64,000 nucleotides of DNA, from positions 715,304 to 779,303 of the forward strand of contig JAOAHD010000007.1 in NCBI GenBank assembly GCA_026415395.1, written 5' to 3'. The notes beneath the pieces are model-generated. The model ran no database searches and had not been told where the DNA came from. It saw nothing but the letters and a program-made list of their open reading frames with translations. Position numbers and translations under genes: made by a program. Numbering within the stretch: position 1 is the stretch's first letter; each line of letters starts with the position of its first letter. This stretch comes from Candidatus Binatia bacterium (GTDB lineage Bacteria; Desulfobacterota; Binatia; HRBIN30). This document shows, piece by piece, positions 20,336 to 61,461 of this stretch.

Positions 20336-20374
20336 GGAGTCTCGCTCGTTAAAACGTAGTAGGGCGAAAACGCC

Positions 20375-38544: not shown

Positions 38545-38618
38545 CTCGTCCTTCTCCCCGCATTCGCCAACTCAGGTTTCACGTTGGCGCTGCCAGCAGC
38601 CTGGGCGTGCCTTCCGGG

Positions 38619-39953
38619 TTACACGCCCAGCAACAAGCGCGCCGGATCCTCGATGCGTTCCTTCACGCGGACGAGAAACGTCACCGCTTGCTCTCCATCG
38701 ACGAGCCGATGGTCGTAGGACAACGCTACATACATCATCGGGCGAATGACAATTTGGTCGTCCACTACCACGGGGCGTTTTTCGATTTTGTGCATCCCGA
38801 GGATCCCGCTTTGTGGTGGGTTGAGAATTGGCGTAGATAACAACGAGCCGAACACGCCGCCGTTGGTGATGGTGAAGGTGCCGCCGCTGATTTCTTGGAT
38901 GCTCAGTTTCCCTTCGCGCGCTCGTGTGGCTAGCCGCTCGATTTCGGCTTCGATCTCGGCAAACGATCGCTGGTCGGCATAGTGGATCACGGGCACGACC
39001 AGGCCACGTTCCGTGGCCACGGCAATGCCGAGGTGCACGTGCTTGTGGTAGACGATGTCGTCGCCGTCGATAAACGCGTTGACCACGGGAATTTCTTGCA
39101 GCGCGGCCACGCAGGCTTTGGCGAAAAACGACATGAAGCCGAGGCTAACTCCGTAGCGTTTTTGAAATCGCTCGCGGTATTGGGAACGCAAGGCCATGAC
39201 CGCACTCATATCGATTTCATTGAAGGTGGTGAGGATGGCGGCGGTGTGCTGCGCTTGCACCAATCGTTCGGCAATGCGCTTGCGCAGGTGGGTCATGGGT
39301 ACGCGCTCCTCCTCTGCGGCTGCCGGGCGCGGGATGGTTGGAGATGGTGGTGGGGGCTGAGGTGGGGCTTCCGCCCGCGAGGGCTCTCCGGAGAGCGCCG
39401 GGCTTGGAGGGGGTGAGCCCGGCGCCGCTGGCGCGGCGGCCGCCACTTTGGGCCCAGGCGCAGTCTCACGTCGTTGGTCGAGGTAGGCGAGTACGTCGGC
39501 TTTTGTCAGACGGCCTCCTTTGCCAGTGCCGGGAATTTGGCTGGCATCGAGCCCATGCTCTTCGATGAGCCGGCGCACGGCTGGACTGAGCAAGTGTGCC
39601 GCACTTCTTCCCTCGCTTGGGGGGCCTTGGGTTGCTTCTGCCGAGGCTGGCGCTCGCGCTACGTCCCTCGGCGGAGCCGCAAGCTCGGTTGGCGGTGACG
39701 TGGCAAGGCCTTCTCCCGCCTGGGTGTCGATGGTTGCGACCACTGCACCCACCTGCACCGTGGATCCTTCCGGCTGAACAATGTGCAGCACGCCGGCGGC
39801 GTTTGCCGGAATCTCTACGCTCGCCTTGTCGGTTTCGAGCTCCAAAATGGGCTCGTCAACCTGAACGCGCTCCCCTTCCTTCTTGATCCACCGTACGATC
39901 ACGCCTTCGGTGATCGACTCGCCTAACGACGGAATCCGTACCTCAACGGGCAT
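38619..39953 (-). CDS. sucB: 2-oxoglutarate dehydrogenase E2, dihydrolipoyllysine succinyltransferase
   Basis: It has an N-terminal lipoyl domain (..[12 protein letters not shown]..), an Ala/Pro linker, and a catalytic domain ..DHRLVDG.. . Confidence 0.9.
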
Positions 39954-42753
39954 AGGTCCTCCGCAACGCAGCGTTGATCAGCTCCTGCTCCTCGCTTTGG
40001 TGCACCTTGTAGACGCCGGTTGCGGGGCTCGCCGCTGGCTTCCTACCCGCGTAGAGGATCGGTCGATCTTTCCCGACCATGCGCAAAAGATGTCGAAACA
40101 TTTCGTTCCACGCACCCATATTTTGCGGCTCTTCCTGTGCCCACATGAGCTCAGCGCGCTCGGGGTAGAGGTCCAGAAACGTGCGCAGCTCCTTTTCCGG
40201 AAAGGGGTAGAGTTGTTCGATCCGAACAAAGGCGATGTCATCGATATCGCGCTCGCGGCGCGCGACGAGCAGGTCGTAAAAAATTTTGCCACAACACAAA
40301 ATCACTCGGCGCACCTTGGCGGGGTCGATCGGGTCGACGTCGCCGAGAACCGGTTGGAAGGTACCCTCGGTGAAATCCTTTACCGGGGAGACGCACAGTT
40401 TGTGGCGGAGCAAGCTCTTCGGTGTCATGAGCACGAGCGGCTTGCGGAAATTGCGATGAATTTGTCGGCGCAGTGCGTGGAAGTACTGTGCCGGCGTTGT
40501 GAGGTTGCATACTTGAATGTTTTTCTCAGCGCAGAGTTGCAGGAAACGTTCGAGCCGTGCGCTGGAGTGTTCGGGTCCTTGGCCTTCGTAGCCGTGCGGT
40601 AGCAGGAGCACGAGCCCGCTCATCTTTTGCCACTTGGATTCGGCCGCCACGATGAATTGATCGATCATCACCTGGGCGTTGTTGGCGAAATCGCCAAACT
40701 GTGCTTCCCACAGGACCAAGTTGCGCGGGTCAGCAGAGCTGAAGCCGTACTCGAACCCAAGAACGGCGAGTTCCGATAGCATCGTATCGATCACCGTGAA
40801 GCGCCCTTGCCGCTCCGCCAGGTGATCGAGGGGGACGTAGCGGGAGCCGTTTTGCACGTCGTACCAAACGGCGTGGCGCTGACTGAATGTGCCGCGCCCG
40901 CTGTCTTGCCCGGCGAGCCGCACATGGGTCCCTTCCAACAGCAGGGAGCCGAAGGCGAGCATCTCTGCCGTTGCCCAGTCCACTTGCCCTTCGCCGTGCA
41001 ACATCTCGATGCGTTGTTCGTATAGGCGGCGCACTTTGGGATGCACCGCAAATCCCTCCGGGGCGAGGGCCGCTTTGCGGACAATTTCTTCGAGCCGCTC
41101 GCGCGGCACCGCGGTGTGCGCGCTCCAGTCATCACCGGCCCAACGCATGCCTTTCCAAACGCCGCCGAACACAAACACTTGCTGCCGGGGCATGAAGTCC
41201 CGCGCGTAATTCAAGGCGTCTTCGAACAACTCGCGTAGCGAGGCAGCGTATCCTTCCAATTCCTTCTCTTGGACCACTCCGGCGGCCAGCAAGCGCTGCG
41301 CGTACAATTTCCGCACCGTAGGGTGTGCCTCGATCTGGCGGTAGAGAGTGGGTTGCGTGAAGGTGGGGTCGTCGGTTTCGTTGTGACCGTGTCGACGATA
41401 ACACACCAGGTCAATAAACACGTCTTTCTTAAACCGTGCCCGGAACGCTGCGGCTAACCGGGCGGCTTGAATCGCTGCTTCAGGATCGTCGGCGTTCACA
41501 TGGAAAATCGGTGCGTGGAGGAACTTGGCGAGGTCGGTGGGGTAGCGGGTGGGCCGGAAGTACTCGGGCGGCGTCGTGAAGCCAATTTGGTTGTTGATGA
41601 TGATGTGAATGGTTCCGCCCGTGCGGTAGTCGCGGAGCTCGGAAAGGGCGAGGGTTTCTGCCACGATTCCCTGGCCGCAAAACGCGGCATCCCCGTGCAG
41701 CACGACCGGCTGCACGCGCGAGCCATCGGTGTCGCCCATGTAGTGCTGTTTCCCGCGCACGATGCCTTCGACCACCGGATCGATGGCTTCCAAGTGGCTC
41801 GGGTTCGAGCACAAGGAAAGATGCATCTTGTGGCCGCTGCGGGTAACGATGTCCTTCGAGTAGCCCAGGTGATACTTCACGTCGCCATCGCCCGGCACGT
41901 GCGCCGGCAGGCGCGTACCCTCGAATTCGGCAAAGATCATCTCGTAAGGCTTGCGCAAAATGTGGGCGAGTACATTGAGCCGGCCGCGATGCGGCATGCC
42001 CATGACAATTTCCTCTACGCCCTGCCGCCCGGATTCCTCCACAATCTCGTCCAGCAGCGGGATCAGGGCTTCGGCACCTTCTAAGGAAAAGCGCTTTTGG
42101 CCCAGGTACTTCACTTGCAAAAACTGCTCGAAACTTTCCGCTTGGGTCAGGCGCTGGAGAATGTATTTGCGATCCTCGTTGGACAGCTCAGGTTCGTTCA
42201 GCGAGGGTTCCATGCGCTCTTGCAGCCAAGTGCGCTGTTCCTTGTCGTCGGTGTGCATGTACTCCACACCCAAGGTGCGGCAGTAAATGGCGCGCAGTCG
42301 CTCGATCACGTCCCGCAGGCGCCCGCGGGGAAAGCCCTTCAGCATGGGCGTTTCCACCACTCGGTCGAGATCGCCGTGAGAAAAACCGAACTCCGCTGGT
42401 TCTAGCAAAGGATGAGAGGACAGGTTGTTCCCCAAAGGGTCGAGGTTGGCAATTAAGTGGCCAATTTCGCGGTAGGAGTGCACGAGGTTGTACACGCCGA
42501 TGTGCTGCGCGGGCGGAACCGCGATCTCGGCCGGCCGTCTGGCCGGCTCGCGGCGAGCCAGTTCGAAGCCGGCGAAAAACAGCGCCCATGACGAGTCCAC
42601 CGAATTCGGGTCACGTTGGTAGCGCTGGTACATCTCCTCGATGTATTCGGCATTGGCGCGGGAAAGGAAGTCGAGCTTTGTCACCGTTTGCCTCCTCGGT
42701 TCCCGAACATAGCAGCGGCCAACGCAATCAAAGCAGCTTGCCTCCATGGCCAT
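39943..42753 (-). CDS. sucA: 2-oxoglutarate dehydrogenase E1 component
   Basis: It is 936 aa with a TPP-binding region and directly precedes sucB with an overlapping stop/start. Confidence 0.9.
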
Positions 42754-46775: not shown

Positions 46776-48257
46776 GTGCGGATTGCCTGTCTTTATGTTC
46801 CCGAATTTCCCTTGGCTGCGTGGCTGCGCGCCGAACCCGAACTGCGCACGCAAGCAGTCGTTGTTGTGGAGCGACTCGATCCGCGCAGCCCCCTGTTAGC
46901 AACATCGCGCGCTGCATGGCGCTGGGGCATTGGCCCCGGCATGCGACTCAGCCAAGCACAGAGCCTGTGCCGCACGTTGGTGGTTCGGCCCTGCAGTCGC
47001 TTGTTGCAAGAAAGTGCCCGCGCCGCACTGATGGACGCCGCTAGTTCTTGCTCTCCCTTGGTCGAGCCCGCAGAGGACGGCGTGGTGTACATCGGTCTAG
47101 AAGGGCTCATTGGCCACTGGTGTCGTACGGAGACCCAATGGGCAAGCCAACTCTCTGCACGTTGCGAACGCCTCGGCGTGCCGGCCCGCGTAGCAGTAGC
47201 CAGCACGAAAACGGCAGCCTTGCTGGCTGCGATGCGCCGAGAAGGCGTAACGGTGTTGGACCCAGCGGAAGAAGCCACTTTTCTTGCGCCGGTACCGATT
47301 GCGGCTTTGCGCCCGAGCCCACCCTTGCTTGCTACCTTGGAGCGCTGGGGTATCCACACCATCGGCCAACTCGTGCAACTCCCCTTGGAGGCTGTAGGCA
47401 CGCGCTTGGGGCCGGAGGGGATTGCGCTGATCCGCCGCGCTCGCGGAGAAGAGCTCCAGCCATTGCAACCGCGTCCGTGTCCAATGGTGTTTGAGGAGGG
47501 CATGGAGTTCGATTACGAGATCGACTCTCTCGAACCTTTAACCTTCGTGCTGCGAGCGCTGCTCGACCGAGTCACGGCGCGCCTGGTAGCACGTGGGTTT
47601 GCCTGTGCAGCCTTGCAACTGGGCATGCATTTGTCGGGCACAGGTTGGGAGGATCGCACAGTTGCCGTGGCATACCCAAACAACGAGGTCAAAGCCCTGC
47701 TCGCCTTGTTGCGTGTGCATCTCGAGCAGCAGCCTCCGCAAAATGCCATCGATGCCGTACGGTTGCGGGCGCGCCCCGAGATGCTGCGTGCAAGTCAGCT
47801 CGACTTATTTCGCCCGCCAGGCCCACCCTCGGCTAGCCTGGCCGCCATGCTCGCACAACTTTCCGCTTTGTGTGGCAGCGAGCGCGTGGGAAGCCCAACG
47901 GTGTTGGCCACGCATCGTCTCGACGGTGACGGCATGGTCCCCTTCGGCACGCGCGGGAACTGGCAGAGCGCCGCGCCTCCCCCGAGCGCACTACCACCAC
48001 TGGCCTTGCGCCGTTTTCGCCCGCCGCTTCCCGTGAAAGTGTTTTCCGAGCGTGAACGGCCGGAGTTCGTGCGCGGTCCTGGATTCGGTGGTCGCGTAGT
48101 GTCCTGGGGTGGCCCGTGGCGCATCCGTACGGAGTGGTGGAGCGAAGCGACGTATGTGCGCGATTACTACGACGTGCAACTGAGCGACGGTGGGCTTTAC
48201 CGCCTCTTTCGCGATGAGCAACGGCAACAATGGTTTGCGGATGGGGTGTATGACTGA
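46776..48257 (+). CDS. imuB: ImuB (catalytically inactive Y-family polymerase-like protein)
   Basis: The N-terminus MRIACLYVPEFPLAAWLRAEPELRTQAVVVVE is typical of ImuB, with Y-family fold spacing. It is 493 aa. Confidence 0.8.
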   Translation: MRIACLYVPEFPLAAWLRAEPELRTQAVVVVERLDPRSPLLATSRAAWRWGIGPGMRLSQAQSLCRTLVVRPCSRLLQESARAALMDAASSCSPLVEPAEDGVVYIGLEGLIGHWCRTETQWASQLSARCERLGVPARVAVASTKTAALLAAMRREGVTVLDPAEEATFLAPVPIAALRPSPPLLATLERWGIHTIGQLVQLPLEAVGTRLGPEGIALIRRARGEELQPLQPRPCPMVFEEGMEFDYEIDSLEPLTFVLRALLDRVTARLVARGFACAALQLGMHLSGTGWEDRTVAVAYPNNEVKALLALLRVHLEQQPPQNAIDAVRLRARPEMLRASQLDLFRPPGPPSASLAAMLAQLSALCGSERVGSPTVLATHRLDGDGMVPFGTRGNWQSAAPPPSALPPLALRRFRPPLPVKVFSERERPEFVRGPGFGGRVVSWGGPWRIRTEWWSEATYVRDYYDVQLSDGGLYRLFRDEQRQQWFADGVYD

Positions 48258-48302
48258 CAGCGCTCGTGTTCGGGACATGCTTTGCCGGAAAGGGCAGCAA
48301 CG

Positions 48303-51300
48303 ATGAACTACGTCGAGCTCCGCTGTCATTCGGCATTTCACTTTCTCGCCGCCGCTTCCTTGCCGGAAGACCTCGTTGCCCGCGCGGCTGCTCTCGGGTA
48401 CGACGTGTGTGCTCTAGGCGATGCCGACGGCGTGTACGGTGCCCCGCGCTTTTACCGGGCCGCACGCGAGGCTGGGATCCGGCCGTTAGTGGGCTGTGAG
48501 TTGACACTACGGCGCTGGGGTGAGGAAGGCCAATCCACGCGCCGCCCGCCCACACACTTGTATGTGTTGGTGGCTACTCGCACAGGTTACAGCAATCTGT
48601 GCCGTTTAATCACCCAGAACAAGCGCAAGTTTCCCAAGGGGGCAGCCGTGCTCACATGGGAAGAATTGACGGGGTTTACCGATGGGCTCATTTGTCTGGC
48701 CCGCGACGCATTGTTTCCCGAACCGTTTTGCTTTGCCCCCGAAGCCCTGCAAACACTTCGCCGCTTGTTCCCTGGCCGTTTGTATCTCGAACTCCACCGC
48801 CACGGTGATCCGGCAGAGGAGCGCCACAACCGCATTCTGTGCGACGTGGCAGCCCGCTTCGGTGTGCCCCTCGTGGCCACCAACGACGTGCGTTACGCCG
48901 TACCCGAGCTGCAATCCCTCTGCGACGTGCTCACCTGCATTCGCCACCACACCACGATCGATGCCGCCGGATGGCTGCTCGAGCGCAATGCCGAGCGTTA
49001 CCTCAAACCGCCAGCAGAGATGGAGCAACTGTTCAGCGATTTTCCGGCGGCCGTCCGCAATACACGGGCGATTGCCGAGCAATGCGAATTTACCCTCGCC
49101 AACTTGGGTTATCGTTTCCCGGAATATCCCGTGCCGGCAGGGCAAACAGCGCAAGAGCATTTGCGGGAGTTGGTCTACCGCGGTGCGCGTGAAAGTTACC
49201 GTTGCCTGACGGCAAAAGTGCGGGGCCAGCTCGAACACGAGCTGCATGTAATCGGCAAACTCGGGTTAGCAGGATATTTTTTGATCGTTTGGGACATTGT
49301 TCGCTTTTGCCGCGAGCAAGGAATCCTCGCACAAGGGCGCGGCTCTGCCGCCAACAGTGCCGTATGTTACGCCTTGGGGATCACGGCAGTCGATCCGGTG
49401 GGGATGGAGCTTCTCTTCGAACGCTTCCTTTCGGAAGAACGGGGTGAATGGCCGGATATCGACATTGACCTTCCAAGCGGCGACCAGCGCGAGCGCGTGC
49501 TGCAGTATGTGTATGGCCGTTACGGTCCTCATGGCGCTGCCATGACCGCCAATGTGATCACCTACCGCTTGCGCAGTGCCGTGCGGGAAGTGGGGAAAGC
49601 GTTGGGGTTTTCGTTGGAGCAGCTCGACCGTTTGGCCAAGTTCCTTCACCGCTTCGAATTCCGTGATGCGCACGACAACGACCTCCCGGCTCACATGCAT
49701 GCGGCTGGGCTCGACCCACAGGCCCCCCGATCGCGTTTGCTCGTGCAACTCGTCGAGCGCATTTTGCACCTCCCGCGCCACTTGGGTCAGCATTCTGGCG
49801 GAATGATTATCGCGGCCGGGCGGCTCGACGAAATCGTGCCCTTGGAGCCCGCGCGCATGCCCGGGCGTGTGGTCGTGCAGTGGGACAAGGACGATTGTGC
49901 CGACCTTGGAATCATCAAGGTCGACTTGCTCGGCCTCGGCATGATGGCCGTTTTGGAGGAAGCGTTACCGCTGGTCCGCCAGCACGAAGGCGTGGAGATC
50001 GACCTCGCTCACTTGCCCCCCAACGACCCCAAAACTTACGCGCAACTGCAGCAAGCCGACACGGTCGGCGTCTTCCAAGTAGAAAGCCGCGCGCAGATGG
50101 CCACGTTGCCGCGTCTCCGGCCACGGTGTTTTTACGACTTGGTGGTGGAGGTGGCCCTGATCCGCCCCGGACCGATTGTTGGTCAAATGGTGCATCCTTA
50201 CCTGCGCCGCCGCGCCGGACGCGAACCGATTACGTACCCCCATCCGTCGCTCGAACCTATTCTGCGGCGCACCCTTGGGGTGCCGTTGTTTCAAGAACAG
50301 TTGCTACGTATTGCCATGACGGTGGCCGGCTTCTCGGGTGGCGAAGCCGAAGAGCTCCGGCGGGCCATGGGGTTTAAGCGCTCGCTCGAACGGATGCGCG
50401 CCATCGAAGCCAAACTGCGTGCCGGCATGGCTGCCCGCGGCATCGTCGGCAAAACGGCGGAAGAAATCGTGCGCAGCATTACCTCGTTTGCTCTTTATGG
50501 GTTCCCTGAATCACATGCTGCCAGCTTTGCCTTGTTGGCGTATGCTTCGGCATACCTCAAGGCACACCATCCCGCAGCGTTTACTTGCGCCTTGCTGAAC
50601 AATTGGCCCATGGGTTTTTATCACCCCGCTACCATTGTGAAGGATGCCCAACGCCACGGGGTGCGGGTGCTGCCGATCGATGTGACCCGCTCGACGTGGC
50701 GGTGCAGCTTGGAGCGGATGGCGGCTGGGGAGGGAAGCCGGCTTTGCTTGCGGCTCGGGCTCAAGTACGTGCGGGGTTTGCGCGCAGAAGCAGGCGAGCG
50801 CATTGTGCGGGAACGAGAAACAAAACCCTTTGCCTCGCTGGAGGATTTTGTTCATCGCTGTGCTTTGCGCGAGAGCGAGCTTGCCACGCTGGCGGAAATC
50901 GGGGCATTGGCAGCGTTCGGACACACGCGCCGGAGTGCCTTGTGGCAAGCCGCTGCTGTTGCGCGTGGCCCGCTGTTTGCCGCTGCAACCGAGCAAGACC
51001 ACAATAATGAAGTCGAGCCGAGCCCTCTGCCAGAGATGCTCCCCGTGGAGCGTACTTTGGCAGACTTAAAGGGAAGTGGCGTTACCGTTGGCCCGCATCT
51101 CATGGCACATTGGCGAGCGCAGCTCGAGGCACGAGGCTTTGTACCGGCACGCACTCTACCCCACTGCCACCACGGACAGTGGGTGAAAGTGGCGGGGCAT
51201 GTCATCGTCCGCCAACGCCCAGGTACAGCCAAGGGCTTTTGTTTTCTCACGCTGGAAGACGAAACTGGCTTGGCCAATGTGGTTCTGACCCCGGCATTCT

Positions 51301-51458
51301 TCGAACGGCACCGTACCTTGTTGCTCACCGCACCTTTGCTGGAAGTAGAAGGTTATTTGCAGCACGTCGATGGGGTCATTCACGTTCGTGCGCAAAGATT
51401 GCATCGCCTTGCGCTCTCCCAGGCACTCACCTCCTCTGAGCTCACAAGCGACGCATGA
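48303..51458 (+). CDS. dnaE2: error-prone DNA polymerase DnaE2 (ImuC)
   Basis: It starts with the PHP domain MNYVELRCHSAFHFLAAAS.. and is about 1050 aa of Pol III alpha homolog without a tau-binding tail. ATG 48303 is preferred. Confidence 0.9.
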   Translation: MNYVELRCHSAFHFLAAASLPEDLVARAAALGYDVCALGDADGVYGAPRFYRAAREAGIRPLVGCELTLRRWGEEGQSTRRPPTHLYVLVATRTGYSNLCRLITQNKRKFPKGAAVLTWEELTGFTDGLICLARDALFPEPFCFAPEALQTLRRLFPGRLYLELHRHGDPAEERHNRILCDVAARFGVPLVATNDVRYAVPELQSLCDVLTCIRHHTTIDAAGWLLERNAERYLKPPAEMEQLFSDFPAAVRNTRAIAEQCEFTLANLGYRFPEYPVPAGQTAQEHLRELVYRGARESYRCLTAKVRGQLEHELHVIGKLGLAGYFLIVWDIVRFCREQGILAQGRGSAANSAVCYALGITAVDPVGMELLFERFLSEERGEWPDIDIDLPSGDQRERVLQYVYGRYGPHGAAMTANVITYRLRSAVREVGKALGFSLEQLDRLAKFLHRFEFRDAHDNDLPAHMHAAGLDPQAPRSRLLVQLVERILHLPRHLGQHSGGMIIAAGRLDEIVPLEPARMPGRVVVQWDKDDCADLGIIKVDLLGLGMMAVLEEALPLVRQHEGVEIDLAHLPPNDPKTYAQLQQADTVGVFQVESRAQMATLPRLRPRCFYDLVVEVALIRPGPIVGQMVHPYLRRRAGREPITYPHPSLEPILRRTLGVPLFQEQLLRIAMTVAGFSGGEAEELRRAMGFKRSLERMRAIEAKLRAGMAARGIVGKTAEEIVRSITSFALYGFPESHAASFALLAYASAYLKAHHPAAFTCALLNNWPMGFYHPATIVKDAQRHGVRVLPIDVTRSTWRCSLERMAAGEGSRLCLRLGLKYVRGLRAEAGERIVRERETKPFASLEDFVHRCALRESELATLAEIGALAAFGHTRRSALWQAAAVARGPLFAAATEQDHNNEVEPSPLPEMLPVERTLADLKGSGVTVGPHLMAHWRAQLEARGFVPARTLPHCHHGQWVKVAGHVIVRQRPGTAKGFCFLTLEDETGLANVVLTPAFFERHRTLLLTAPLLEVEGYLQHVDGVIHVRAQRLHRLALSQALTSSELTSDA

Positions 51459-53357: not shown

Positions 53358-53619
53358 CACTGGGCGGAAGCGCCCGACGAGAAGGGTGCCGCGATGAGTG
53401 GCAGAGCCACGGGTTGCCAGCAGCGGCGTGCGCGAAGGCTCGTGTTGCGGGACCGTGTGGAGAGGTCGCAGCGCCGGTGTGGTCGAGCGGTCACTGGTGG
53501 ACTGCCCGCAACCAGTAGTCGGGCACCGTATGCAACGGCACGCCTGGGTAGATGGTCAGGCCACGATGTCGACGTGCCGCGGTCGATGTGGTAGCCGATA
53601 CCGGGCGAGACCAGAGTTT

Positions 53620-54177
53620 ATGAAGCGTTGGTTTGCTTTATCGGCAATCGGACCCGATCGCCCCGGAATCGTCGCGGATCTAGCGGAGCTCATTTATGAG
53701 TGTGACTGCAACCTCGAAGACTCCAGCATGACCGTTTTGGGCAGCGAATTTGCCGTGTTGCTGTTGCTCACGGGCGAGGGAGAAGACTTGGAGCGGCGGT
53801 TGTCGTCGGCATGTAAGCGCTTGGAGTGGGAGAAACGCCTCACCGTCTTCTTCCGGCCGCTCGAAGGGGAACCCGTGCCCTACCGTTTGGCTACAGGGGC
53901 CCGGCCTTACGCGTTGCAGGCGACCGGTGTGGACAAGGCAGGAATCGTGGCGCGCATCGCCCGTGTGCTGGCCGAGCACGGGGTGAACATCACCAAAATG
54001 GAAACAACGTCGCGCCCGGAGCCGGGTACCGGGACACCGATTTACCAAATGTCGATTGCCATGGATGTGCCGGCGCGCACAGACGAAGCGAGGCTGCGCG
54101 CCGATCTCGAGCGGGCTGCGGCGGAACTCCTCATCGATGTACAGCTCGAGCCCGTGCAAGCCACGGCCACACGGTAG
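53620..54177 (+). CDS. tandem ACT-domain protein (GcvR-like regulator)
   Basis: Two ACT-like units are present (..LSAIGPDRPGIVADLAELI.. and ..LQATGVDKAGIVARIARVLAEHGVNI..). The ATG at 53620 is the real start; the long upstream extension from 53398 is rejected. Confidence 0.6.
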   Translation: MKRWFALSAIGPDRPGIVADLAELIYECDCNLEDSSMTVLGSEFAVLLLLTGEGEDLERRLSSACKRLEWEKRLTVFFRPLEGEPVPYRLATGARPYALQATGVDKAGIVARIARVLAEHGVNITKMETTSRPEPGTGTPIYQMSIAMDVPARTDEARLRADLERAAAELLIDVQLEPVQATATR

Positions 54178-54471: not shown

Positions 54472-55662
54472 TCACCCGCGGGGTAACCCCAAAAGGCGCT
54501 GGGCGATGATGTTGCGCTGGATTTCCGAAGTGCCGGACGCGATTGTCATGGCCCGGGCCATCAGCCAGGCATGCTGCCACGCGCCGTCGCGCAGCACCCG
54601 TTCGTCTCCTCGCCACAGTTGGGCGTAGGGTCCCTGTGCGGTCAGGGCGAAGTCGAGAAAGCGCTGGGCGAGCTCTGATCCATAAAGCTTAAGGAGCGAC
54701 ACATCGGTGGGCGTGCGGCCGTGTTGTAGGTCGCTGACCAGCGCTAGGCCGTGAAAGCCCATAATTGCCACCTCGGTCCAAAACTCGGCAAAGCGCTGGC
54801 GTACGAGTGGATCACCTGCCCGACCGCTGGACTGCAACCATCGGCGTAACTCTTCGAGCTCTACTTGCCGCCGCACGTGATCGACGAGCAACAACGTACC
54901 GCGCTCGTGGCCGAGCGCGGTGAGAATGACTTGCCATCCATTGTGCAATTCGCCGACCAAGTTGGTGACCGGCACTTGCACATTTTCAAGGAACACTTCG
55001 TTAAAGTCGCTGTCTCCGGTAATTTCACGCAGCGGCCGCACAGTTACTCCTGCACTGCGCATGGGCAAAATCAGGCAGCTAATGCCCTTGTGTGGAGCGG
55101 CCTGCGGGCCGGTACGCACGAGAAAGAGCCCGTAATCGGCTTGCTTGGCATAAGTCGTCCACACCTTCTGACCGTTGACCACAAAAACATCTCCACGCTG
55201 CTCGGCGCGTGTTCGGAGGGAGGCTAAATCCGAGCCAGCATTGGGTTCGGAGAAGCCGAGGCACCAGAGTTCCTCGGCGGACAACAGCGGCGGTAGATAC
55301 CGCTGGCGCTGTGCAGGAGTGCCGAACACGAGCAAGGTGGGAGCGAAAATGCTGACGGCCGCACCGTTCACCAGTGGAGGTCCATCAGCACGCGCTAATT
55401 CTTGCTGCACAGCCAAGTGCTCGAGCAGCGAAGCCCCTCGTCCGCCGACTTCCTCTGGAAAGTGGACGGCGACCCAACGCTCTTGTTGCAAGGCCCTCTG
55501 CCAGGCGCGGAGAAACTCCACCCGCGCGCCCATGTCCTGGCTGTGGCGCAAGCCTCTCCACTCCGCGCACGCACTTTGGTGCGCCATGAGCCACCGGCGA
55601 AACTCACAGCGGGTTTGCTCCACGCGTTCGAGGGGTTCAAAATCCATGGCGGCGTGAGTCAA
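54472..55662 (-). CDS. acyl-CoA dehydrogenase
   Basis: It has the ACAD fold (..GFSEPNAGSD..FVVNGQKVWTT..) and a C-terminal catalytic-base region. It is 396 aa. Confidence 0.8.
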   Translation of the reverse strand: MTHAAMDFEPLERVEQTRCEFRRWLMAHQSACAEWRGLRHSQDMGARVEFLRAWQRALQQERWVAVHFPEEVGGRGASLLEHLAVQQELARADGPPLVNGAAVSIFAPTLLVFGTPAQRQRYLPPLLSAEELWCLGFSEPNAGSDLASLRTRAEQRGDVFVVNGQKVWTTYAKQADYGLFLVRTGPQAAPHKGISCLILPMRSAGVTVRPLREITGDSDFNEVFLENVQVPVTNLVGELHNGWQVILTALGHERGTLLLVDHVRRQVELEELRRWLQSSGRAGDPLVRQRFAEFWTEVAIMGFHGLALVSDLQHGRTPTDVSLLKLYGSELAQRFLDFALTAQGPYAQLWRGDERVLRDGAWQHAWLMARAMTIASGTSEIQRNIIAQRLLGLPRG

Positions 55663-55735
55663 TCAATCGATTGACGCGAAATATGCGAAATGGTAGCCGA
55701 AGTCAAATTGCCAGATTTTCACGGGAGGAAGGGTC

Positions 55736-56653
55736 ATGCTGCTGGAAGGTCGAGTTGCTGTAGTCACTGGAGCGGGCCGCGGCGTGGGTCGCGGTATTGC
55801 TTTGGAGTTAGCGCGCAACGGAGCCAAGGTCGTTGTGAACGACCTCGGGTGTGGGGTCGATGGCCAAGGGAAGGCAGAAGACCCGGCCATGCAAGTGGTG
55901 GAAGAGATTCGCGCGATGGGCGGGCAGGCGGTGCCCAACTACGACTCCGTGGCTTCGTTCGAAGGGGCCAAGCGGATTATCGATACGGCGCTCGAAAATT
56001 TTGGCAGGATCGACATCCTTGTGAACAATGCCGGTATTTTGCGTGACCGCACGATGGTGAAAATGACGGAGGAGGATTTCGACGCGGTCATTGCCGTCCA
56101 TCTCAAGGGAACGTGGAATTGCGGCCGGCACGCGATCCCGCACATGCGCGAACAAAACTACGGCCGCATCATCAATATCACTTCGAGCGCGGGGCTGCGG
56201 GGGAATTTCGGGCAAAGCAATTACGGGGCGGCGAAGGCTGGGATCATGGGCCTGACCCTGTGTTGGGCGCTGGAGCTTGCTCGCTACGGCATCACCGTGA
56301 ACGCAATGGCGCCAGCTGGCCTCACCCGAATGGTGGCAACGATGCCGGGAATGGAAAACAAGGAGCCGCCGCACGAAATGCACCCGGATCGCAATGCCCC
56401 CATGGTGGCGTTTCTCGCATCGGAAAAAGCCGCCCATGTGAACGGCCAAATTTTTGGGCGGCGGGGGTACGGATTTACCCTGTTCCAGCAACTGCGGCCG
56501 ATTGCCATGATGTACAAGCCGGGAGGGCTCACGGCCGAGGAAATTGCGGCCAACTTCGATGGGGTCTTCCTCGAACATTTGCAGCCCATTGGCATCCCGC
56601 AGTTGCGTCGCGACGACAACAAAAAGGAAGAGAAAAAGGAAGAAAAGAAGTAG
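55736..56653 (+). CDS. MFE-2 (HSD17B4)-type (3R)-hydroxyacyl-CoA dehydrogenase, SDR family
   Basis: It has GRVAVVTGAGRGVGRGIALELARNGAKVVVNDLG and ..NNAGILRDR..SSAGLRGNFGQSNYGAAKAG.., which closely mirror the MFE-2 dehydrogenase domain. Confidence 0.75.
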   Translation: MLLEGRVAVVTGAGRGVGRGIALELARNGAKVVVNDLGCGVDGQGKAEDPAMQVVEEIRAMGGQAVPNYDSVASFEGAKRIIDTALENFGRIDILVNNAGILRDRTMVKMTEEDFDAVIAVHLKGTWNCGRHAIPHMREQNYGRIINITSSAGLRGNFGQSNYGAAKAGIMGLTLCWALELARYGITVNAMAPAGLTRMVATMPGMENKEPPHEMHPDRNAPMVAFLASEKAAHVNGQIFGRRGYGFTLFQQLRPIAMMYKPGGLTAEEIAANFDGVFLEHLQPIGIPQLRRDDNKKEEKKEEKK

Positions 56654-56662
56654 GGAAGCCAG

Positions 56663-58096
56663 ATGCGTGAAGTAGGAATTCGGTCGCAAGCCGCCTACAT
56701 CCCCATGTTGCGCTTGTCGCTGGGGGCGATCAGCGGCGGGCGCAAGGCCAGTGGCGGGAGTGGCGAGCGGGCAGTGGTGTACTTTGATGAAGATCCCGTC
56801 ACCATGGCCGTGGCAGCCGGTATGGCTTGTCTTGAGGGAATCGACCGCACGGAGGTGGACGCTCTTTATTTTGCTTCTACCTCCTACCCGTACCGGGAGA
56901 AGCAAGGAGCGGCATTAATTGCCAAGGCTTTGGATTTGCGCCGCGATGTGATGACTGCGGACCTGACGGACTCCACGCGTGCGGGCACCGCAGCGGTTCG
57001 GGCTGCGATGGATGCGGTGCGGGCTGGCAGTGCCCGCAATGCCCTGGTGATTGCGGCGGACGCGCGCCCGGCTCCTCCCCGGAGCCCACTGGAACGCAAC
57101 TTCGGTGATGCTGCAGCCGCCTTTTTGATCGGGGGCGACGACCTTGCAGCGGTGTTCGAAGAGCAGGTGTTCCTGGCTGAAGAGATCATCGATGTGTGGC
57201 GCACGGAGTGGGATCGCTTCGTGCGCTCGTGGGAAGACCGCTTTGTCGTGGAACGCGGCTACAGCGAAAACATCGTTGAGGCCATTCGCGCCCTGTTGAA
57301 GAAAACTGGAACCGCGCCGGGAGATTTCTCGAAGCTCGTAGCGTACACCCCGGATGCCCGCAGCTTGGCGGGTGTGGCACGGGCGACCGGGTTCGAGGCG
57401 AAGACCCAGGTGCAAGATGCGCTGTTTGGCAAGGTGGGAAACTGCGGGGCCGCCTTTGCTCCGCTGCTGCTGGCCGCGGCCTTAGAACAAGCTCGTGACG
57501 GCGAGCGTTTGCTGTGGGCGAATTATGGCGACGGGGCCGATGCAATGCTGGTGCGTACTACCGACAAGGTAGCGAGTTTGGGTAAACGTCGTGGCGTGCA
57601 GTGGCACCTGGCGCGGCGGCGCGAGTTCGCGGACTACGACCGCTATTTGAATTACCGGAACCTTTACCCAAGCGAGAGCGACCGGCGCGCCGGCCAAGGT
57701 GTGTCGGCAACGGTGCATTATCGTGACCGCAACGAGGACATCGCTTTCCACGGTTACCGCTGCCGCCGCTGTCGGACGGAGCAGTTCCCGTTTCAGCGAG
57801 TCTGCTTTCAGTGTTTTGCGCGCGACGACTTCGACGAAATCCGCTTGGCGGAGCGCCACGGGAAGGTGATGTCGTATACGTTCGACTATTTCGCAGGCAG
57901 CCCTGACCCACCGTTGATCGTAACGACCATTGAAATTGACGGCGGCGCGAGGGTGTACTTGCAAATGACCGATGCCACACCGACAGAGGTCAAGCTGGAT
58001 ATGCCCGTGGAGTTCACCTTTCGGAAGATTCACGAGTATGGGGGCACGCCCAACTATTTTTGGAAGTGTACCCCGGTCAGGAATATCGCCTGGTAA
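56663..58096 (+). CDS. HMG-CoA-synthase-like (thiolase-fold) domain fused to DUF35 Zn-ribbon/OB-fold domain
   Basis: The N-terminal ~340 aa have HMGCS-like topology (..ALYFASTSYPYREKQGAALIAKALDL..). The C-terminal CRRCRTEQFPFQRVCFQC + OB fold is typical of DUF35 scaffolds. The gene is followed by an SCP2-type thiolase. Confidence 0.65.
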   Translation: MREVGIRSQAAYIPMLRLSLGAISGGRKASGGSGERAVVYFDEDPVTMAVAAGMACLEGIDRTEVDALYFASTSYPYREKQGAALIAKALDLRRDVMTADLTDSTRAGTAAVRAAMDAVRAGSARNALVIAADARPAPPRSPLERNFGDAAAAFLIGGDDLAAVFEEQVFLAEEIIDVWRTEWDRFVRSWEDRFVVERGYSENIVEAIRALLKKTGTAPGDFSKLVAYTPDARSLAGVARATGFEAKTQVQDALFGKVGNCGAAFAPLLLAAALEQARDGERLLWANYGDGADAMLVRTTDKVASLGKRRGVQWHLARRREFADYDRYLNYRNLYPSESDRRAGQGVSATVHYRDRNEDIAFHGYRCRRCRTEQFPFQRVCFQCFARDDFDEIRLAERHGKVMSYTFDYFAGSPDPPLIVTTIEIDGGARVYLQMTDATPTEVKLDMPVEFTFRKIHEYGGTPNYFWKCTPVRNIAW

Positions 58097-58129
58097 CCAG
58101 GAAGTGACCAGCGCAAGCGGAGGGCAACG

Positions 58130-59287
58130 ATGAACGCAGAAGCAATCCGCGACAAGGTAGCGATCGTTGGCATGGGCTGTTGCAAGTTCGGGGAGAACTG
58201 GGACAAGGCCCCGGAAGACATGATTGTCGAGGCGGCCTTCGAGGCGTACGAAGATGCGGGCATCGAAGACCCGCAAAAGCAAATCGAAGCCGTGTTTTGC
58301 GGGGCGGTGTATCCATCGAAAGGCACAGCGGAGGTGGCCGATGCCCTCAAGCTTTTCGGGCGTCCGGTGAGCATGGTCCAAAACTATTGTGCCACCGGAA
58401 CCGACGCCCTGCGGTACGGAGTGTTCGCCGTCGCGTGCGGGATGTACGACACGGTGATGGTGGTGGGCTTCGATAAGCCGAAAGACCGCGGTGTGAGCGG
58501 TCCGAGCGCAGTCACCACCGGGGTGCGGGGGCTCCCCATGACACCCGCGGGCTGGTTTGCCTTATGCGCCGCACGTTACTTCGAAACTTACGGGGCTACC
58601 CGCGAGGATTTGGCCAAAATCGCGGTGAAGAACCACCATAACGGCACACTGGCCCCGAAGTCGATGATCAAGAAAGAAATCACGGTCGAAGATGTGTTGC
58701 AGGCGCCGATTATCTCGTGGCCCTTCGGTCTTTACGATTGCTGTGCACAGTCGGACGGAGCGGCCGTAGCAATTCTCACTCGTCGCGACTTGGCGAAAAG
58801 TTTTCGCGACGATTACGTCCTCATTCGGGCGATTTCCATCGCCTTGGGCCCGAACCCGCAGTCGGATCCGTCGTTTGATTTCCTCCGCTGGAAACCAACG
58901 ATCTATGCAGCGCAAGACGCTTACCGGCAAGCAGGCATCGCGAATCCGGCTAAGGAAATCCACGTGGCGCAGGTGCACGACTGTTTTACCCTGACCGAGT
59001 TGCTGACCTATGAGGACTTGGGGTTTGCGGAAAAGGGCTCTGCAAAAGAGCACATTGCCGCCGGAACCTTCGAACTGGGTGGGGCGCTGCCGGTGAACAC
59101 CGACGGTGGATTGAAGAGTTTCGGCCATCCGACCGGTGCGACCGGAATTCGCATGCTGTACGAGAACTATAAACAGCTTCAGGGAAAAGCCGGACCCCGG
59201 CAGGTGAAAAACGCCACCGTGGCGTTGAGCCACAACCTGGGCGGTGCTCCGCAAACTTGTGGTGTGGCGATTGTCACAATGCCCTGA
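58130..59287 (+). CDS. SCP2/SCPx-type thiolase
   Basis: It has VAIVGMGCCKFGE, the nucleophile region QNYCATGTDAL, and the C-terminal ..DGGLKSFGHPTGATG.. . Confidence 0.8.
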   Translation: MNAEAIRDKVAIVGMGCCKFGENWDKAPEDMIVEAAFEAYEDAGIEDPQKQIEAVFCGAVYPSKGTAEVADALKLFGRPVSMVQNYCATGTDALRYGVFAVACGMYDTVMVVGFDKPKDRGVSGPSAVTTGVRGLPMTPAGWFALCAARYFETYGATREDLAKIAVKNHHNGTLAPKSMIKKEITVEDVLQAPIISWPFGLYDCCAQSDGAAVAILTRRDLAKSFRDDYVLIRAISIALGPNPQSDPSFDFLRWKPTIYAAQDAYRQAGIANPAKEIHVAQVHDCFTLTELLTYEDLGFAEKGSAKEHIAAGTFELGGALPVNTDGGLKSFGHPTGATGIRMLYENYKQLQGKAGPRQVKNATVALSHNLGGAPQTCGVAIVTMP

Positions 59288-59450
59288 ACCGCGCGTGGTT
59301 GGGCCTAAGCTCGGTTAGCCGAGAGCTGCTCGTTGGTGGAATCGTCCGAAAAGGCTGGACTGAATACGTTCGAGCGGGGCTCGGTAGCTCTGCGTCGTGT
59401 AGGTACGTTTCCCTCACGGCAAAGGGCCGTGGTTTGGAAGGCTCCACGCG

Positions 59451-60710
59451 CTAAAGCGCAGCCGCTCGGGGCCGTTTCTCCATGGCGAGCACGACGACGG
59501 GCAGTAATACCGCCGCCATCAAAATGGAGTAACTCCTCCACACCAACGCGTAGCTGCCGAAGTGGTCGAACATGGCGGCGGAGTACACATTTGCCAGCAT
59601 GGTGCTGCCCATGCACACCATCATGGCCACCCCAAGCCATCGGCCGATGCGGGCGGCGCCGAAGAGTTCGGTTAGAAGCAGGGCGAGAAGCGCTACGATG
59701 CCACTGTTGACGAGTCCGTAGAAGATTGCCCACGCGAACCAGGCAGCGGAGCTGTGTAAGTTCCACAGGAGGACGGAAGCGAGCGTCAACCCGGCGATGG
59801 TGCCTACGAGTGCGGGGCGAGCACCCCAGCGGCCCGAGATGCCGCCAACGAGCGGCGCGCCGAGGGCACCGACAAGAAGCTGCGTACTCAAGACTTGCGA
59901 GGCTTGAGCCTGGGCAAACCCGAGGTCGGTGAGGTGCGCGTGCAAGTGAAGCTGCACAGAGGTCACGAAGGCGTACACGCCGGCGTAGACCACGAGTAAA
60001 AGTAGAAACGAGCGCCAAGGAGTGGCCGGTTCTGTTGCTTGGCGGGTTGAGGTTTGAGCACGGACGTGTTGGTCGCGGCCGTCATCTGCGCGCATGGTGG
60101 CGAGCACGATTAGAGCAAGGGCGAGGTAGGCCCCTCCCAACGCCAAGAGCGCGGCTTGCCAACCACGGTGCTGGAGAATTGCCGCGATGGCCAGGGGGAT
60201 CATCGCGTTTAGCAAGTTGTCCCCACCGTTGAGCACGCCGACAGCCCATCCGCGCCGCTTGGTGAAGTGGCGGACGACTAAGGCTGAAGCTGCAACCGAG
60301 CCGATCGCTGCTTGCCCCGGCCCGATGAGCGCCATGGTGGGGTACAGCCACGACACCGACGGAATCCACGCCAACGCGAGCGTGCACGTTCCCACGATTA
60401 GCGCGCCGCTGGCGAGCACGGTCCGTGCCCCAAACCGGTCTGTGGCGAGCCCAGCAAGGCTCATCGCGCCCACCATGAGAAGCATGCGTAGGCTCATTGC
60501 CGAGGCGAACGTGGTGCGGTCGATCTGCCATGCCTGGGTCATAGGCTTCATCAGCACGGCGAAGGCGAGCGAGGAAGCGGACTGGGCGCTGACGGCACAC
60601 ACCCCAACAGCGAGCAAGAGCCAGGAGCGCAAGGGCTCGCCCCACAACGTCGACACGGCTGCCGGTGGCAGGGATTGGGGATCAGTCGAAGTAGTGCCCC
60701 GCATTGACAT
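59451..60710 (-). CDS. MFS transporter
   Basis: It has 12 predicted TM helices and the MFS loop motif ..GLATDRFGART.. . Start at MSMRGTT (60710) avoids overlap with the upstream SDR. Confidence 0.7.
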   Translation of the reverse strand: MSMRGTTSTDPQSLPPAAVSTLWGEPLRSWLLLAVGVCAVSAQSASSLAFAVLMKPMTQAWQIDRTTFASAMSLRMLLMVGAMSLAGLATDRFGARTVLASGALIVGTCTLALAWIPSVSWLYPTMALIGPGQAAIGSVAASALVVRHFTKRRGWAVGVLNGGDNLLNAMIPLAIAAILQHRGWQAALLALGGAYLALALIVLATMRADDGRDQHVRAQTSTRQATEPATPWRSFLLLLVVYAGVYAFVTSVQLHLHAHLTDLGFAQAQASQVLSTQLLVGALGAPLVGGISGRWGARPALVGTIAGLTLASVLLWNLHSSAAWFAWAIFYGLVNSGIVALLALLLTELFGAARIGRWLGVAMMVCMGSTMLANVYSAAMFDHFGSYALVWRSYSILMAAVLLPVVVLAMEKRPRAAAL

Positions 60711-61461
60711 CGAGGGCTTGGCCAGTGACAGCACGCGACAAATCGGAGGCGAAGAACACAACGGTGTCCGCCACTTCATCCGAGTCGGGAATGTGATTTA
60801 AGCAAGTGCGGCTAGCGATGTCGTCGCGCACTTCCTCGAAGGTGCGATTTTGTTGCTTTGCTAACCAGCGGAAATAGCCGGCGAGCTTTTCGCTCCAAAT
60901 GTAGCCGGGTACGATCGAGTTCACCCGGATGCCGTAAGGCCCGAGTTCTTTCGCGAGTGTGCGGGCTGCGATCAATAGAGCGCCCTTGGATGCTGCGTAG
61001 CCACCCATGCCCGGCTCAATCACCCGGGCTGACATCGAGTTGACGAAGATGATCGAGCCCCCGCCTTGTTTGCGCATGTGTGGCACCACGCTCTGCGTGA
61101 GCTGCAACGACCCGAACACATTGACTTCGAACACCTCCCGCCACTGCTGCAAATCGACTTCTTCGAAACGGGGTTCCACGCCGCCACGGAAGGCATTGTT
61201 GACCAGCACGTCAATGCGCCCGAATTTGTCGATCACTGCTTCCACCAGGTCGGTGCACGCCGAAGATGACGCAATGTCCGCCGGTAGCGCCACAGCCTGC
61301 CCGCCGCGCAGACTGATTTCACCAGCAACCTCTTCGAGGTATTCCCGGTTGCGGGCCGCCAACGCCACACGCGCCCCTTCACGCGCGCAGGCAAGCGCAA
61401 CGCTGCGCCCGAGACCTGGCCCGACACCCGATACCAGCACGACCTTTTGCGCGAGCAACAT
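60682..61461 (-). CDS. short-chain dehydrogenase/reductase (classical SDR)
   Basis: It has VVLVSGVGPGLGRSVA and the catalytic YAASK, and is about 260 aa. Confidence 0.75.
   Translation of the reverse strand: MLLAQKVVLVSGVGPGLGRSVALACAREGARVALAARNREYLEEVAGEISLRGGQAVALPADIASSSACTDLVEAVIDKFGRIDVLVNNAFRGGVEPRFEEVDLQQWREVFEVNVFGSLQLTQSVVPHMRKQGGGSIIFVNSMSARVIEPGMGGYAASKGALLIAARTLAKELGPYGIRVNSIVPGYIWSEKLAGYFRWLAKQQNRTFEEVRDDIASRTCLNHIPDSDEVADTVVFFASDLSRAVTGQALDVNAGHYFD

Follow-up and report, generated by a model that had tools for sequence, protein, structure and literature searches.

A fused pseudo-HMG-CoA-synthase/DUF35 protein as the predicted scaffold of a thiolase in a β-oxidation-like gene module of Candidatus Binatia

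What is a protein resembling 3-hydroxy-3-methylglutaryl-CoA (HMG-CoA) synthase doing among genes of the β-oxidation type? The question is raised by a 64,000-nt stretch of a Candidatus Binatia genome (contig JAOAHD010000007.1; hereafter the window), in which a gene for an HMG-CoA-synthase-like domain fused to DUF35 (FUS) is followed by a thiolase gene (THL) and preceded by genes for a short-chain dehydrogenase/reductase (SDR1) and an acyl-CoA dehydrogenase (ACAD). The original prediction, drawn from the DNA letters, had described these four genes together with a major facilitator superfamily (MFS) transporter and a second SDR (SDR2). All six were found where it had placed them and with the predicted domain content (open reading frames (ORFs), Pfam, NCBIfam; Table 1), and hidden Markov model annotation upheld its calls of an HMG-CoA-synthase-like/DUF35 fusion, an SCP2-type thiolase and an MFE-2-type SDR. 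Our answer, to which we give a probability of about 0.65 on sequence grounds, is that THL would be the catalytic thiolase and FUS its non-catalytic scaffold, acting with SDR1 and the upstream ACAD in an (R)-specific β-oxidation route resembling that of MFE-2 and SCPx.

The domain content of FUS was examined by several routes. Pfam assigned ACP_syn_III and ACP_syn_III_C (residues 100–293) and OB_ChsH2_C (DUF35, 397–454), all just above their cut-offs, and the Pfam HMG_CoA_synt models gave no match to FUS. The NCBIfam model of the archaeal-type HMG-CoA synthase, PRK04262, aligned end to end with residues 3–335 at 220 bits, short of its cut-off of 244, and TIGR00748 scored 160 bits against a cut-off of 353. 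Against the PDB, residues 1–333 matched 6ESQ_I, the HMG-CoA synthase subunit of the M. thermolithotrophicus thiolase/HMG-CoA synthase/DUF35 complex (8e-37), with an almost equal match to PhlA (~1e-34), and residues 354–472 matched 6ESQ_E, the DUF35 subunit of the same complex (3.7e-10), with BbsA (7PXP_A) and the ChsH2 DUF35 (6OK1_B) weaker. An AlphaFold2 model of FUS had a mean predicted local distance difference test (pLDDT) score of 71; its thiolase-fold core was predicted with confidence and its linker and DUF35 less so, and the top Foldseek matches of the model were the HMG-CoA synthase of 6ESQ, PhlA and MucA. On the strength of these Pfam, NCBIfam, PDB and Foldseek matches, we consider the fusion real. 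It belongs to a large family (593 representatives of 50%-identity clusters at E ≤ 1e-30), and homologues 84–89% identical to FUS occur in metagenome-assembled genomes (MAGs) of Candidatus Binatia and in 'Bacterium HR30'.

We then asked whether the HMG-CoA-synthase-like domain could be active. In the archaeal enzyme, mutating the catalytic tetrad E82-C114-H238-N270 abolishes HMG-CoA synthesis (Liao et al, Nat Commun 2026; PMC12960953), and these are the four positions that were mapped onto FUS. Glu82 is replaced by Thr73, Cys114 by Thr105 and His238 by Tyr228, and the Asn is kept as N260. All of 120 close homologues (120/120) have Thr in place of the Glu; where the Cys would stand they have L, V, T or I, and not one has Cys. 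A distant set, made up of 132 full-length representatives of 50%-identity clusters (32–51% identical), contained no member keeping Cys or Glu (0/132), and each zinc-ribbon Cys of DUF35 was present in 130–131 of the 132. The two sets together give 252 family members without the catalytic Glu or Cys. Because the Glu, Cys and His of the tetrad are lost here and family-wide, the HMG-CoA-synthase-like domain of FUS is, judged by its residues, a catalytically dead pseudo-enzyme, neither a condensing enzyme nor an aldolase. The suggestion that homologues of this domain act as aldolases in steroid and benzylsuccinate systems was mistaken, as those systems have no HMG-CoA-synthase-like component and the aldolase there is the thiolase-fold protein.

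The DUF35 part of FUS carries four invariant zinc-ribbon cysteines (C367, C370, C381 and C384) and an OB fold, at whose C-terminus the motif YFWK is invariant. By analogy with the archaeal complex, it is likely to be a thiolase-binding scaffold. The segment around the linker (residues 321–360, 57623–57742) has a column identity of ~81%, with D340, G344, G346, S348-T350, H352 and R354-R356 among its many invariant residues. In the AlphaFold2 model the pLDDT of the linker is below 50 despite this strong conservation, and the linker would probably be ordered only in the complex, folding upon partner binding.

THL retains what FUS has lost. Pfam found Thiolase_N and Thiolase_C_1, and NCBIfam NF004810 (PRK06157, acetyl-CoA acetyltransferase) matched at 452.9 bits, above its curated cut-off of 403. 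The best PDB match was 7YVY (1e-53), followed by the SCP2-thiolase 6HSJ (second-best, type 1), BbsB (7PXP_C) and 6ESQ_A; 6OK1_A and 6OK1_B appeared only as distant matches in the THL and FUS searches. Cys87, His283-Asp-Cys-Phe286 (HDCF) and Gly332-His-Pro (GHP) are invariant in 39 orthologues. Across genomes where FUS is only 59–88% identical, THL is 80–97% identical, and within FUS the mean identity to the window protein is 81% for the linker and DUF35 half and 66% for the pseudo-HMG-CoA-synthase half. As THL is more conserved than FUS, and the DUF35 half more than the pseudo-HMG-CoA-synthase half, the pattern is consistent with a catalytic subunit and its scaffold.

Two further kinds of thiolase gene were seen. 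First, the window holds a second SCP2-type thiolase paralogue (13249–14406, +), 33% identical to THL, which is preceded by an amidase (11309–12715) and a 4HBT thioesterase (12688–13140, +) and has no DUF35 or HMG-CoA-synthase-like partner adjoining it. Second, an extra thiolase-like gene, 29–32% identical to THL, lies between ACAD and SDR1 in some Binatia relatives (L numbers denote related loci: L005 1754–2890, L006 7615–8748 and L008 7752–8876, −) and does not occur in the window.

The window module is a member of a kind that was already characterised in 2026. Of 1,030 bacterial loci mined for HMG-CoA synthase, acetyl-CoA acetyltransferase (ACAT) and DUF35, 1,001 had no adjacent secondary-metabolism genes of the polyketide synthase (PKS) or non-ribosomal peptide synthetase (NRPS) type, and in P. 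fluorescens PfACAT/HMGS-DUF35, the fused protein lacks the tetrad and the ACAT keeps its Cys, HDxF and GHx (PMC12960953). This complex cleaved acetoacetyl-CoA thiolytically, an activity lost on mutation of the HDxF His, and formed no HMG-CoA or acetoacetyl-CoA; its authors regarded it as an evolutionary intermediate without a defined pathway (PMC12960953). The likeness to the window module, which we draw from the described features rather than from a sequence alignment, consists of the fusion, the loss of the tetrad, the adjacent intact thiolase and the absence of PKS/NRPS genes (none in Pfam scans of ~50 window ORFs). The two differ in that the tetrad Asn (N260) is kept in the window, so that three of the four residues are lost, nucleophile included. 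In addition, the window pair shares an operon with an MFE-2-type SDR and stands beside ACAD, which speaks for a definite part in β-oxidation and against a pathway-less intermediate.

SDR1, FUS and THL are separated by 9 and 33 nt, each gap with a Shine-Dalgarno-like sequence; the ATG of SDR1 is preceded by a GGGAGGAAGGG ribosome-binding site and THL by GGAGG. Considering these short gaps and ribosome-binding sites, we treat the three genes as one operon (55736–59287, +), from which ACAD is transcribed divergently and on which SDR2 and the MFS gene converge. The best solved homologues of SDR1 are (3R)-hydroxyacyl-CoA dehydrogenases of MFE-2, namely C. tropicalis 2ET6 (3.7e-110, both of its dehydrogenase domains matching), then 3OML, 1ZBQ and 1GZ6 (Drosophila, human and rat MFE-2, ~1e-60). 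NCBIfam models of acetoacetyl-CoA reductase and FabG also matched, under their cut-offs. The protein has the motifs TGxxxGxG (11–18) and NNAG (97–100), the SDR catalytic residues Ser150/151, Tyr163 and Lys167, and Asp36 at the end of β2. An Asp after β2 is an NAD-preferring signature in SDRs. SDR1 is probably an MFE-2-type (3R)-hydroxyacyl-CoA dehydrogenase dependent on NAD+, with its (R)-stereospecificity and cofactor use predicted from homology.

ACAD contains the three domains Acyl-CoA_dh_N, Acyl-CoA_dh_M and Acyl-CoA_dh_1, and we regard it as moderately divergent because their E-values are modest (1e-17 to 1e-23). Its start was placed at ATG 55647, which is conserved in 5 genomes and gives 391 aa. 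The best PDB matches were 4X28_A (2.6e-52), which we take to be ChsE4 of the steroid side-chain ACAD ChsE4-ChsE5, and T. curvata Tcur3483 (6WY9/6WY8, ~1e-50). E253, in the numbering of the 396-aa ORF, aligns with residue 247 of 4X28_A, the position of the catalytic base in ChsE4. NCBIfam TIGR03204 (pimC_large) scored 227 bits against a cut-off of 624, and the protein lies far under every equivalog cut-off; its likeness to PimC and ChsE4 is confined to the fold and the position of the catalytic Glu.

The region between ACAD and SDR1 is nearly invariant in the window, L001, L002, L033 and L003, where the coding regions differ by 14–25% at the protein level. It contains a palindrome (Table 1), of which exact copies also stand upstream of SDR1 in L001, L007 and L033. 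This suggests a putative operator co-regulating the two transcription units. The palindrome at 55658–55675 is the sole exact copy in the window, and the idea that it might be a repeated regulon or SOS box, which came from the nearby LexA, ImuB and DnaE2 genes, was rejected as there is no second copy there. Scans of 54–62 kb for promoter and terminator consensus sequences gave counts no higher than shuffled sequences. On the other side of ACAD, a tandem-ACT-domain protein (53398–54177, +) adjoins it in the window, L001, L002, L006, L008, L012 and L033. It is GcvR-like with a score far under the cut-off, its true start probably lies near residue 75, and it could be a small-molecule-sensing partner of the putative ACAD/SDR1 regulator.

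To see in what company FUS and THL are found, we counted neighbours by tblastn over 46 related loci. THL lies immediately downstream of FUS in every related locus where the contig leaves room, and the order ACAD/SDR1/FUS/THL is syntenic in at least 10 related genomes. Given this recurrence and the FUS-THL adjacency, the arrangement is not a chance juxtaposition. An MFE-2-like SDR at least 40% identical to SDR1 lies upstream of FUS in 21 of the 46 loci, and ACAD is present in 15/46. In cultured bacteria, FUS and THL lie in gene clusters annotated as catabolic, and the recurrent unit there is an SDR (305 aa), an optional MaoC, FUS and THL, with ACAD and a CoA transferase or ligase. Variovorax paradoxus has SDR-MaoC-FUS-THL-ACAD-CoA transferase, Sphingomonas paeninsulae has SDR-MaoC-FUS-THL, and Azoarcus KH32C has a MaoC pair, an SDR and electron-transfer flavoprotein (ETF) genes with FUS-THL-CoA transferase. 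On plasmids of Rhodococcus and M. avium, a CoA ligase and the α and β subunits of a ring-hydroxylating dioxygenase are followed by FUS-THL. The closest homologues in a cultured organism are those of Novosphingobium sp. ES2-1 (THL 65%, FUS 41% and SDR 42–43% identical), an activated-sludge isolate by its sample record and a strain cited in oestrogen-degradation papers. Its plasmid p3 has ACAD-SDR-FUS-THL, then enoyl-CoA hydratases, a lipid-transfer protein with DUF35, a P450, a TetR regulator and a FadD3-family ligase, and a MaoC pair and VOC dioxygenases are also neighbours.

In some relatives the partners are joined in one chain. P0264 (911 aa; L047 6001–8736) comprises the pseudo-HMG-CoA-synthase domain, DUF35, an MFE-2-like SDR (47% identical to SDR1) and SCP2; on its contig are further genes for a hydratase-2/SDR/SCP2 protein, an ACOX-like ACAD and a TetR regulator, with an SCP2-type thiolase gene downstream. 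P0245 is FUS with two SCP2 domains. Taken together, P0264 with its neighbours and P0245 are reminiscent of a β-oxidation set of the peroxisomal kind, here in a metagenomic bacterium. One other candidate, P0173 (723 aa), in which an HMG-CoA-synthase-like N-domain is followed by ATG-grasp and molybdopterin-binding domains, looked chimeric or mis-called and was set aside.

Taken step by step, the proposed route would run as follows. ACAD would supply a 2-enoyl-CoA, and an (R)-hydratase and a CoA-activating enzyme would be encoded elsewhere. The last two steps would fall to the SDR1-FUS-THL operon: SDR1 would oxidise the (3R)-hydroxyacyl-CoA to 3-oxoacyl-CoA with NAD+, and the THL/FUS complex would cleave the latter thiolytically with CoA, THL being the sole C-C-cleaving catalytic subunit. 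FUS would be an obligate non-catalytic partner, with DUF35 clamping the thiolase as in the archaeal complex and the HMG-CoA-synthase-fold domain serving as a structural or CoA-chamber scaffold. The substrate is possibly a bulky, branched or otherwise lipophilic acyl-CoA. Complex formation, flux direction, stereochemistry, cofactor use and co-regulation are all predictions here rather than observations.

Several findings weigh against this proposal. The 64 kb contain neither an enoyl-CoA hydratase of the MaoC or crotonase kind nor a gene for a CoA ligase, a CoA transferase or ETF, and searches of the window with Variovorax and Novosphingobium cluster proteins for MaoC, crotonase, CoA-transferase and extra ACAD homologues found none; as there is no hydratase or CoA-activating gene in the window, the pathway cannot be closed from this locus. 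The nearest solved relatives of ACAD are α subunits of α2β2 heteromers, yet the 64-kb window contains no second ACAD that could be a β or small-subunit partner. About half of the related loci consist of FUS-THL alone beside unrelated genes (LexA, DNA ligase, MdoG), so the coupling to β-oxidation does not hold everywhere, and the pair might act more generally as a housekeeping thiolase. The earlier description of a β-oxidation-like cluster therefore holds in part: conserved synteny, the catabolic clusters of cultured bacteria and the FUS-SDR-SCP2 fusions bear it out, and the cluster is incomplete.

Eukaryotic peroxisomes use MFE-2 together with SCPx, an SCP2-thiolase, for the β-oxidation of branched fatty acids and bile-acid precursors. 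The resemblance of the window set to this pair lies in SDR1, whose nearest matches are MFE-2 domains, in THL, whose second-best match is the SCP2-thiolase type 1, and in the relatives with hydratase-2 and SCP2 domains. It differs in being made of separate polypeptides, in a pseudo-HMG-CoA-synthase/DUF35 partner that has no peroxisomal counterpart, and in the absence of a hydratase-2 or SCP2 domain from the window. The archaeal mevalonate complex (6ESQ) has the same three folds, provides the best structural and sequence match for each part, and its thiolase is of the HDxF type. In the window, however, the HMG-CoA synthase and DUF35 are fused, the former is dead (T73, T105, Y228), there is no mevalonate context and the predicted direction is thiolysis rather than condensation.

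In Ltp2-ChsH2, Sal-Shy, BbsAB and IpfDE, as predicted for the window, DUF35 is paired with an SCP2-type enzyme of the thiolase fold, which breaks a C-C bond in a bulky acyl-CoA; these systems lack the HMG-CoA-synthase-like domain and have only DUF35 in common with FUS. BbsB, the benzoylsuccinyl-CoA thiolase, shares the HDxF mechanism with THL, and the NCBIfam models of BbsA and BbsB scored the window proteins at 34 bits against a cut-off of 250 and 162 against 750. Ltp2 and Sal have turned the thiolase fold to a retro-aldol reaction, with DUF35 fused to a MaoC hydratase, whereas THL keeps the thiolase set and its DUF35 is fused to the HMG-CoA-synthase-like domain.

A substrate-specific version of our proposal would have the module dedicated to steroid-like or aryl-alkanoyl-CoA (steroid side chain, oestrogen A/B ring or IpfDE-like for ibuprofen), with the same thiolase chemistry. 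The best solved homologues of ACAD, 4X28_A (ChsE4-ChsE5) and Tcur3483, point that way, as do the Novosphingobium ES2-1 neighbours (FadD3-family ligase, P450, lipid-transfer protein with DUF35, MaoC pair and VOC dioxygenases), the relatives fused to SCP2 sterol-carrier domains, and the order on the Rhodococcus and M. avium plasmids, which is an ipf-like layout (PMC9195938). Yet the window has no signature gene of such a pathway (oxygenase, P450, FadD3, MaoC pair or TetR), ACAD is far under the cut-off of every equivalog model, and loci of the Binatia type are minimal, with a THL conservation (80–97%) more typical of a general enzyme. A retro-aldol reaction of the Ltp2/Sal type is excluded because THL keeps the full thiolase catalytic set. 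We consider this dedicated role unlikely. A paper on actinobacterial oestrogen degradation was discarded as a precedent because it concerns FadA5/Ltp2-type genes and not the fused protein, and the KpsrMFS paper as irrelevant because DUF35 comes up there just incidentally.

The module could instead run in the biosynthetic direction as an ACP-independent chain elongation (reverse β-oxidation, polyhydroxyalkanoate (PHA) or archaeal fatty-acid-synthase type), with THL condensing an acyl-CoA with acetyl-CoA and the scaffold recruiting SDR1 as a ketoacyl-CoA reductase, which would pull the unfavourable condensation. The precedent is S. acidocaldarius, where a ketothiolase/DUF35 pair, an (R)-specific SDR reductase and a MaoC dehydratase make up a fatty-acid-synthase complex (bioRxiv 10.1101/2024.07.05.601840). 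DUF35 there joins an SCP2/archaeal-type thiolase with an (R)-specific SDR, as it might in the window set, and the FUS-SDR fusion P0264 suggests a comparable physical association. (R)-3-hydroxyacyl intermediates are typical of biosynthesis, hydratase and CoA-ligase genes are absent at the locus, and SDR1 does match the reductase and FabG models, albeit below their cut-offs. However, the S. acidocaldarius system is NADPH-dependent, biosynthetic and without an HMG-CoA-synthase-like domain, whereas SDR1 is of the NAD type by Asp36, has catabolic MFE-2 dehydrogenases as its top solved homologues and is adjacent to ACAD, an enzyme of the catabolic direction transcribed divergently across a conserved shared control region. 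In addition, neither an enoyl-CoA reductase nor a PHA synthase was found in the window, the characterised fused P. fluorescens complex did not condense acetyl-CoA (PMC12960953), and the contexts in cultured bacteria are catabolic. We rate this direction as unlikely too, slightly below a dedicated steroid or aromatic role. The original idea of degradation or synthesis of a branched or steroid-like acyl-CoA stays plausible as to substrate, while synthesis is disfavoured by the NAD-type SDR1, the adjacent ACAD and the catabolic contexts.

That the genes encode a true HMG-CoA-forming complex is essentially refuted already. A thiolase, the HMG-CoA synthase fold and DUF35 are all present, and the best structural matches are subunits of the M. 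thermolithotrophicus complex, but FUS has other residues in place of the catalytic Glu, Cys and His, as have all 252 family members examined, and the NCBIfam HMG-CoA synthase models stay below their cut-offs. No mevalonate-pathway gene was found in the window (HMG-CoA reductase and mevalonate kinase domains are missing from its ORFs), and neither archaeal tetrad mutants nor the fused bacterial complex make HMG-CoA (PMC12960953). Just as improbable is a Friedel-Crafts C-acyltransferase, CoA-independent or acetyl-CoA-dependent, tailoring a natural product in the manner of PhlACB (P. protegens, 5M3K/5MG5) or MucABC (Streptococcus, 9VBO/9VBT): these combine, as the window does, a pseudo-HMG-CoA synthase without the tetrad (PhlA, MucA), DUF35 and a thiolase-fold subunit, and the N-domain of FUS resembles PhlA nearly as well as the archaeal enzyme, but their thiolase subunit (PhlC, MucB) has lost the HDxF histidine that THL keeps in its HDCF, the match of THL to PhlC (1e-26) is a distant one beside that to true thiolases (1e-53), and these systems belong to PKS/NRPS clusters rather than a β-oxidation context.

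Table 1. Features of the ACAD/SDR1-FUS-THL locus and its downstream neighbours, in window coordinates.
Feature	Coordinates	Strand	Description
ACAD	54472–55647	−	391 aa; acyl-CoA dehydrogenase, ChsE4/PimC-large-subunit type; longest ORF starts at TTG 55662
Palindrome GTCAATC-AATC-GATTGAC	55658–55675		Within the ~88-bp ACAD/SDR1 intergenic region 55648–55735; candidate operator/promoter
SDR1	55736–56653	+	305 aa; MFE-2-type, probably NAD+-dependent (3R)-hydroxyacyl-CoA dehydrogenase
FUS (whole)	56663–58096	+	477 aa; HMG-CoA-synthase-like domain fused to DUF35
FUS residues 1–335	56663–57667	+	HMG-CoA-synthase-like thiolase-fold domain, catalytic residues lost
FUS residues 336–360	57668–57742	+	Linker
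FUS residues 361–477	57743–58096 (stop codon included)	+	DUF35: zinc ribbon and OB fold
THL	58130–59287	+	385 aa; SCP2/archaeal-type thiolase, predicted catalytic subunit
MFS transporter	59451–60779	−	Oxalate/formate-antiporter or monocarboxylate-transporter type; convergent with THL
SDR2	60682–61461	−	Classical SDR, family PRK07890; upstream of and overlapping the MFS gene

The remaining two genes of the cluster appear to be less closely tied to it. The MFS gene has a Pfam MFS_1 match, every NCBIfam match is under its cut-off, and its true start is probably ~60704–60710. SDR2 matches NCBIfam NF005909 at 327 bits, above the cut-off of 258. The MFS gene adjoins THL only in L001, L002, L003 and L028, and since MFS and SDR2 are syntenic only in the closest relatives, their association with the module is weak at best.

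Other neighbours were noted along the window and in the relatives. In L013–L015 and L017, FUS-THL is directly preceded by a LexA gene on the same strand, and a LexA homologue occurs within the locus of 8 relatives (L010, L013, L014, L015, L017, L019, L021 and L029). The window (46776–51458), L001, L002 and L033 instead have the SOS mutasome genes ImuB-DnaE2 3–9 kb upstream, and this proximity could be a relic of synteny or a regulatory link. Further away, a probable biotin-synthesis trio (19607–22913, −; a dethiobiotin synthetase-like AAA_26 protein with class-III and class-I/II aminotransferases) and a complete 2-oxoglutarate dehydrogenase E1-E2-E3 cluster (37114–42753, −) look like ordinary housekeeping genes unconnected with the FUS module. 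In a plasmid search, two haloarchaeal (Haladaptatus) plasmids matched at least 80% of FUS, and the fused architecture may by this evidence also exist in Archaea.

The preferred reading, a degradative thiolase with a non-catalytic scaffold in an (R)-specific β-oxidation route, can be taken one step further. SDR1, FUS and THL might be physically assembled as an '(R)-β-oxidation metabolon', in which the dead HMG-CoA-synthase domain would act as a CoA chamber or docking surface passing 3-oxoacyl-CoA from SDR1 to THL. This extension is speculative, and we would sooner bet against it than for it; the FUS-SDR-SCP2 fusion and the conservation of the linker and DUF35 are compatible with it and do not prove it. 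If true, the metabolon would mirror, in the catabolic direction, both the channelling complex of the archaeal mevalonate pathway and the fatty-acid-synthase complex of Sulfolobus, and the large fused family would be a widespread machine dedicated to catabolism rather than a pathway-less 'evolutionary intermediate'.

For annotation, a gene routinely labelled 'HMG-CoA synthase' or 'ACP synthase' in Binatia MAGs and numerous others would encode the pseudo-enzyme scaffold of a degradative thiolase, so FUS alone is no ground for ascribing a mevalonate or condensing function to such genomes. The comparative data also add physiological context that had been left open (PMC12960953), in that FUS-THL recurs with an MFE-2-type SDR, hydratase-2, ACAD, a CoA transferase or ligase and SCP2, sometimes fused. 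The cultured carriers Variovorax, Novosphingobium ES2-1 and Sphingomonas paeninsulae are testable candidates for identifying the substrate. Overall, the FUS-THL set would be a bacterial counterpart of peroxisomal MFE-2/SCPx β-oxidation.

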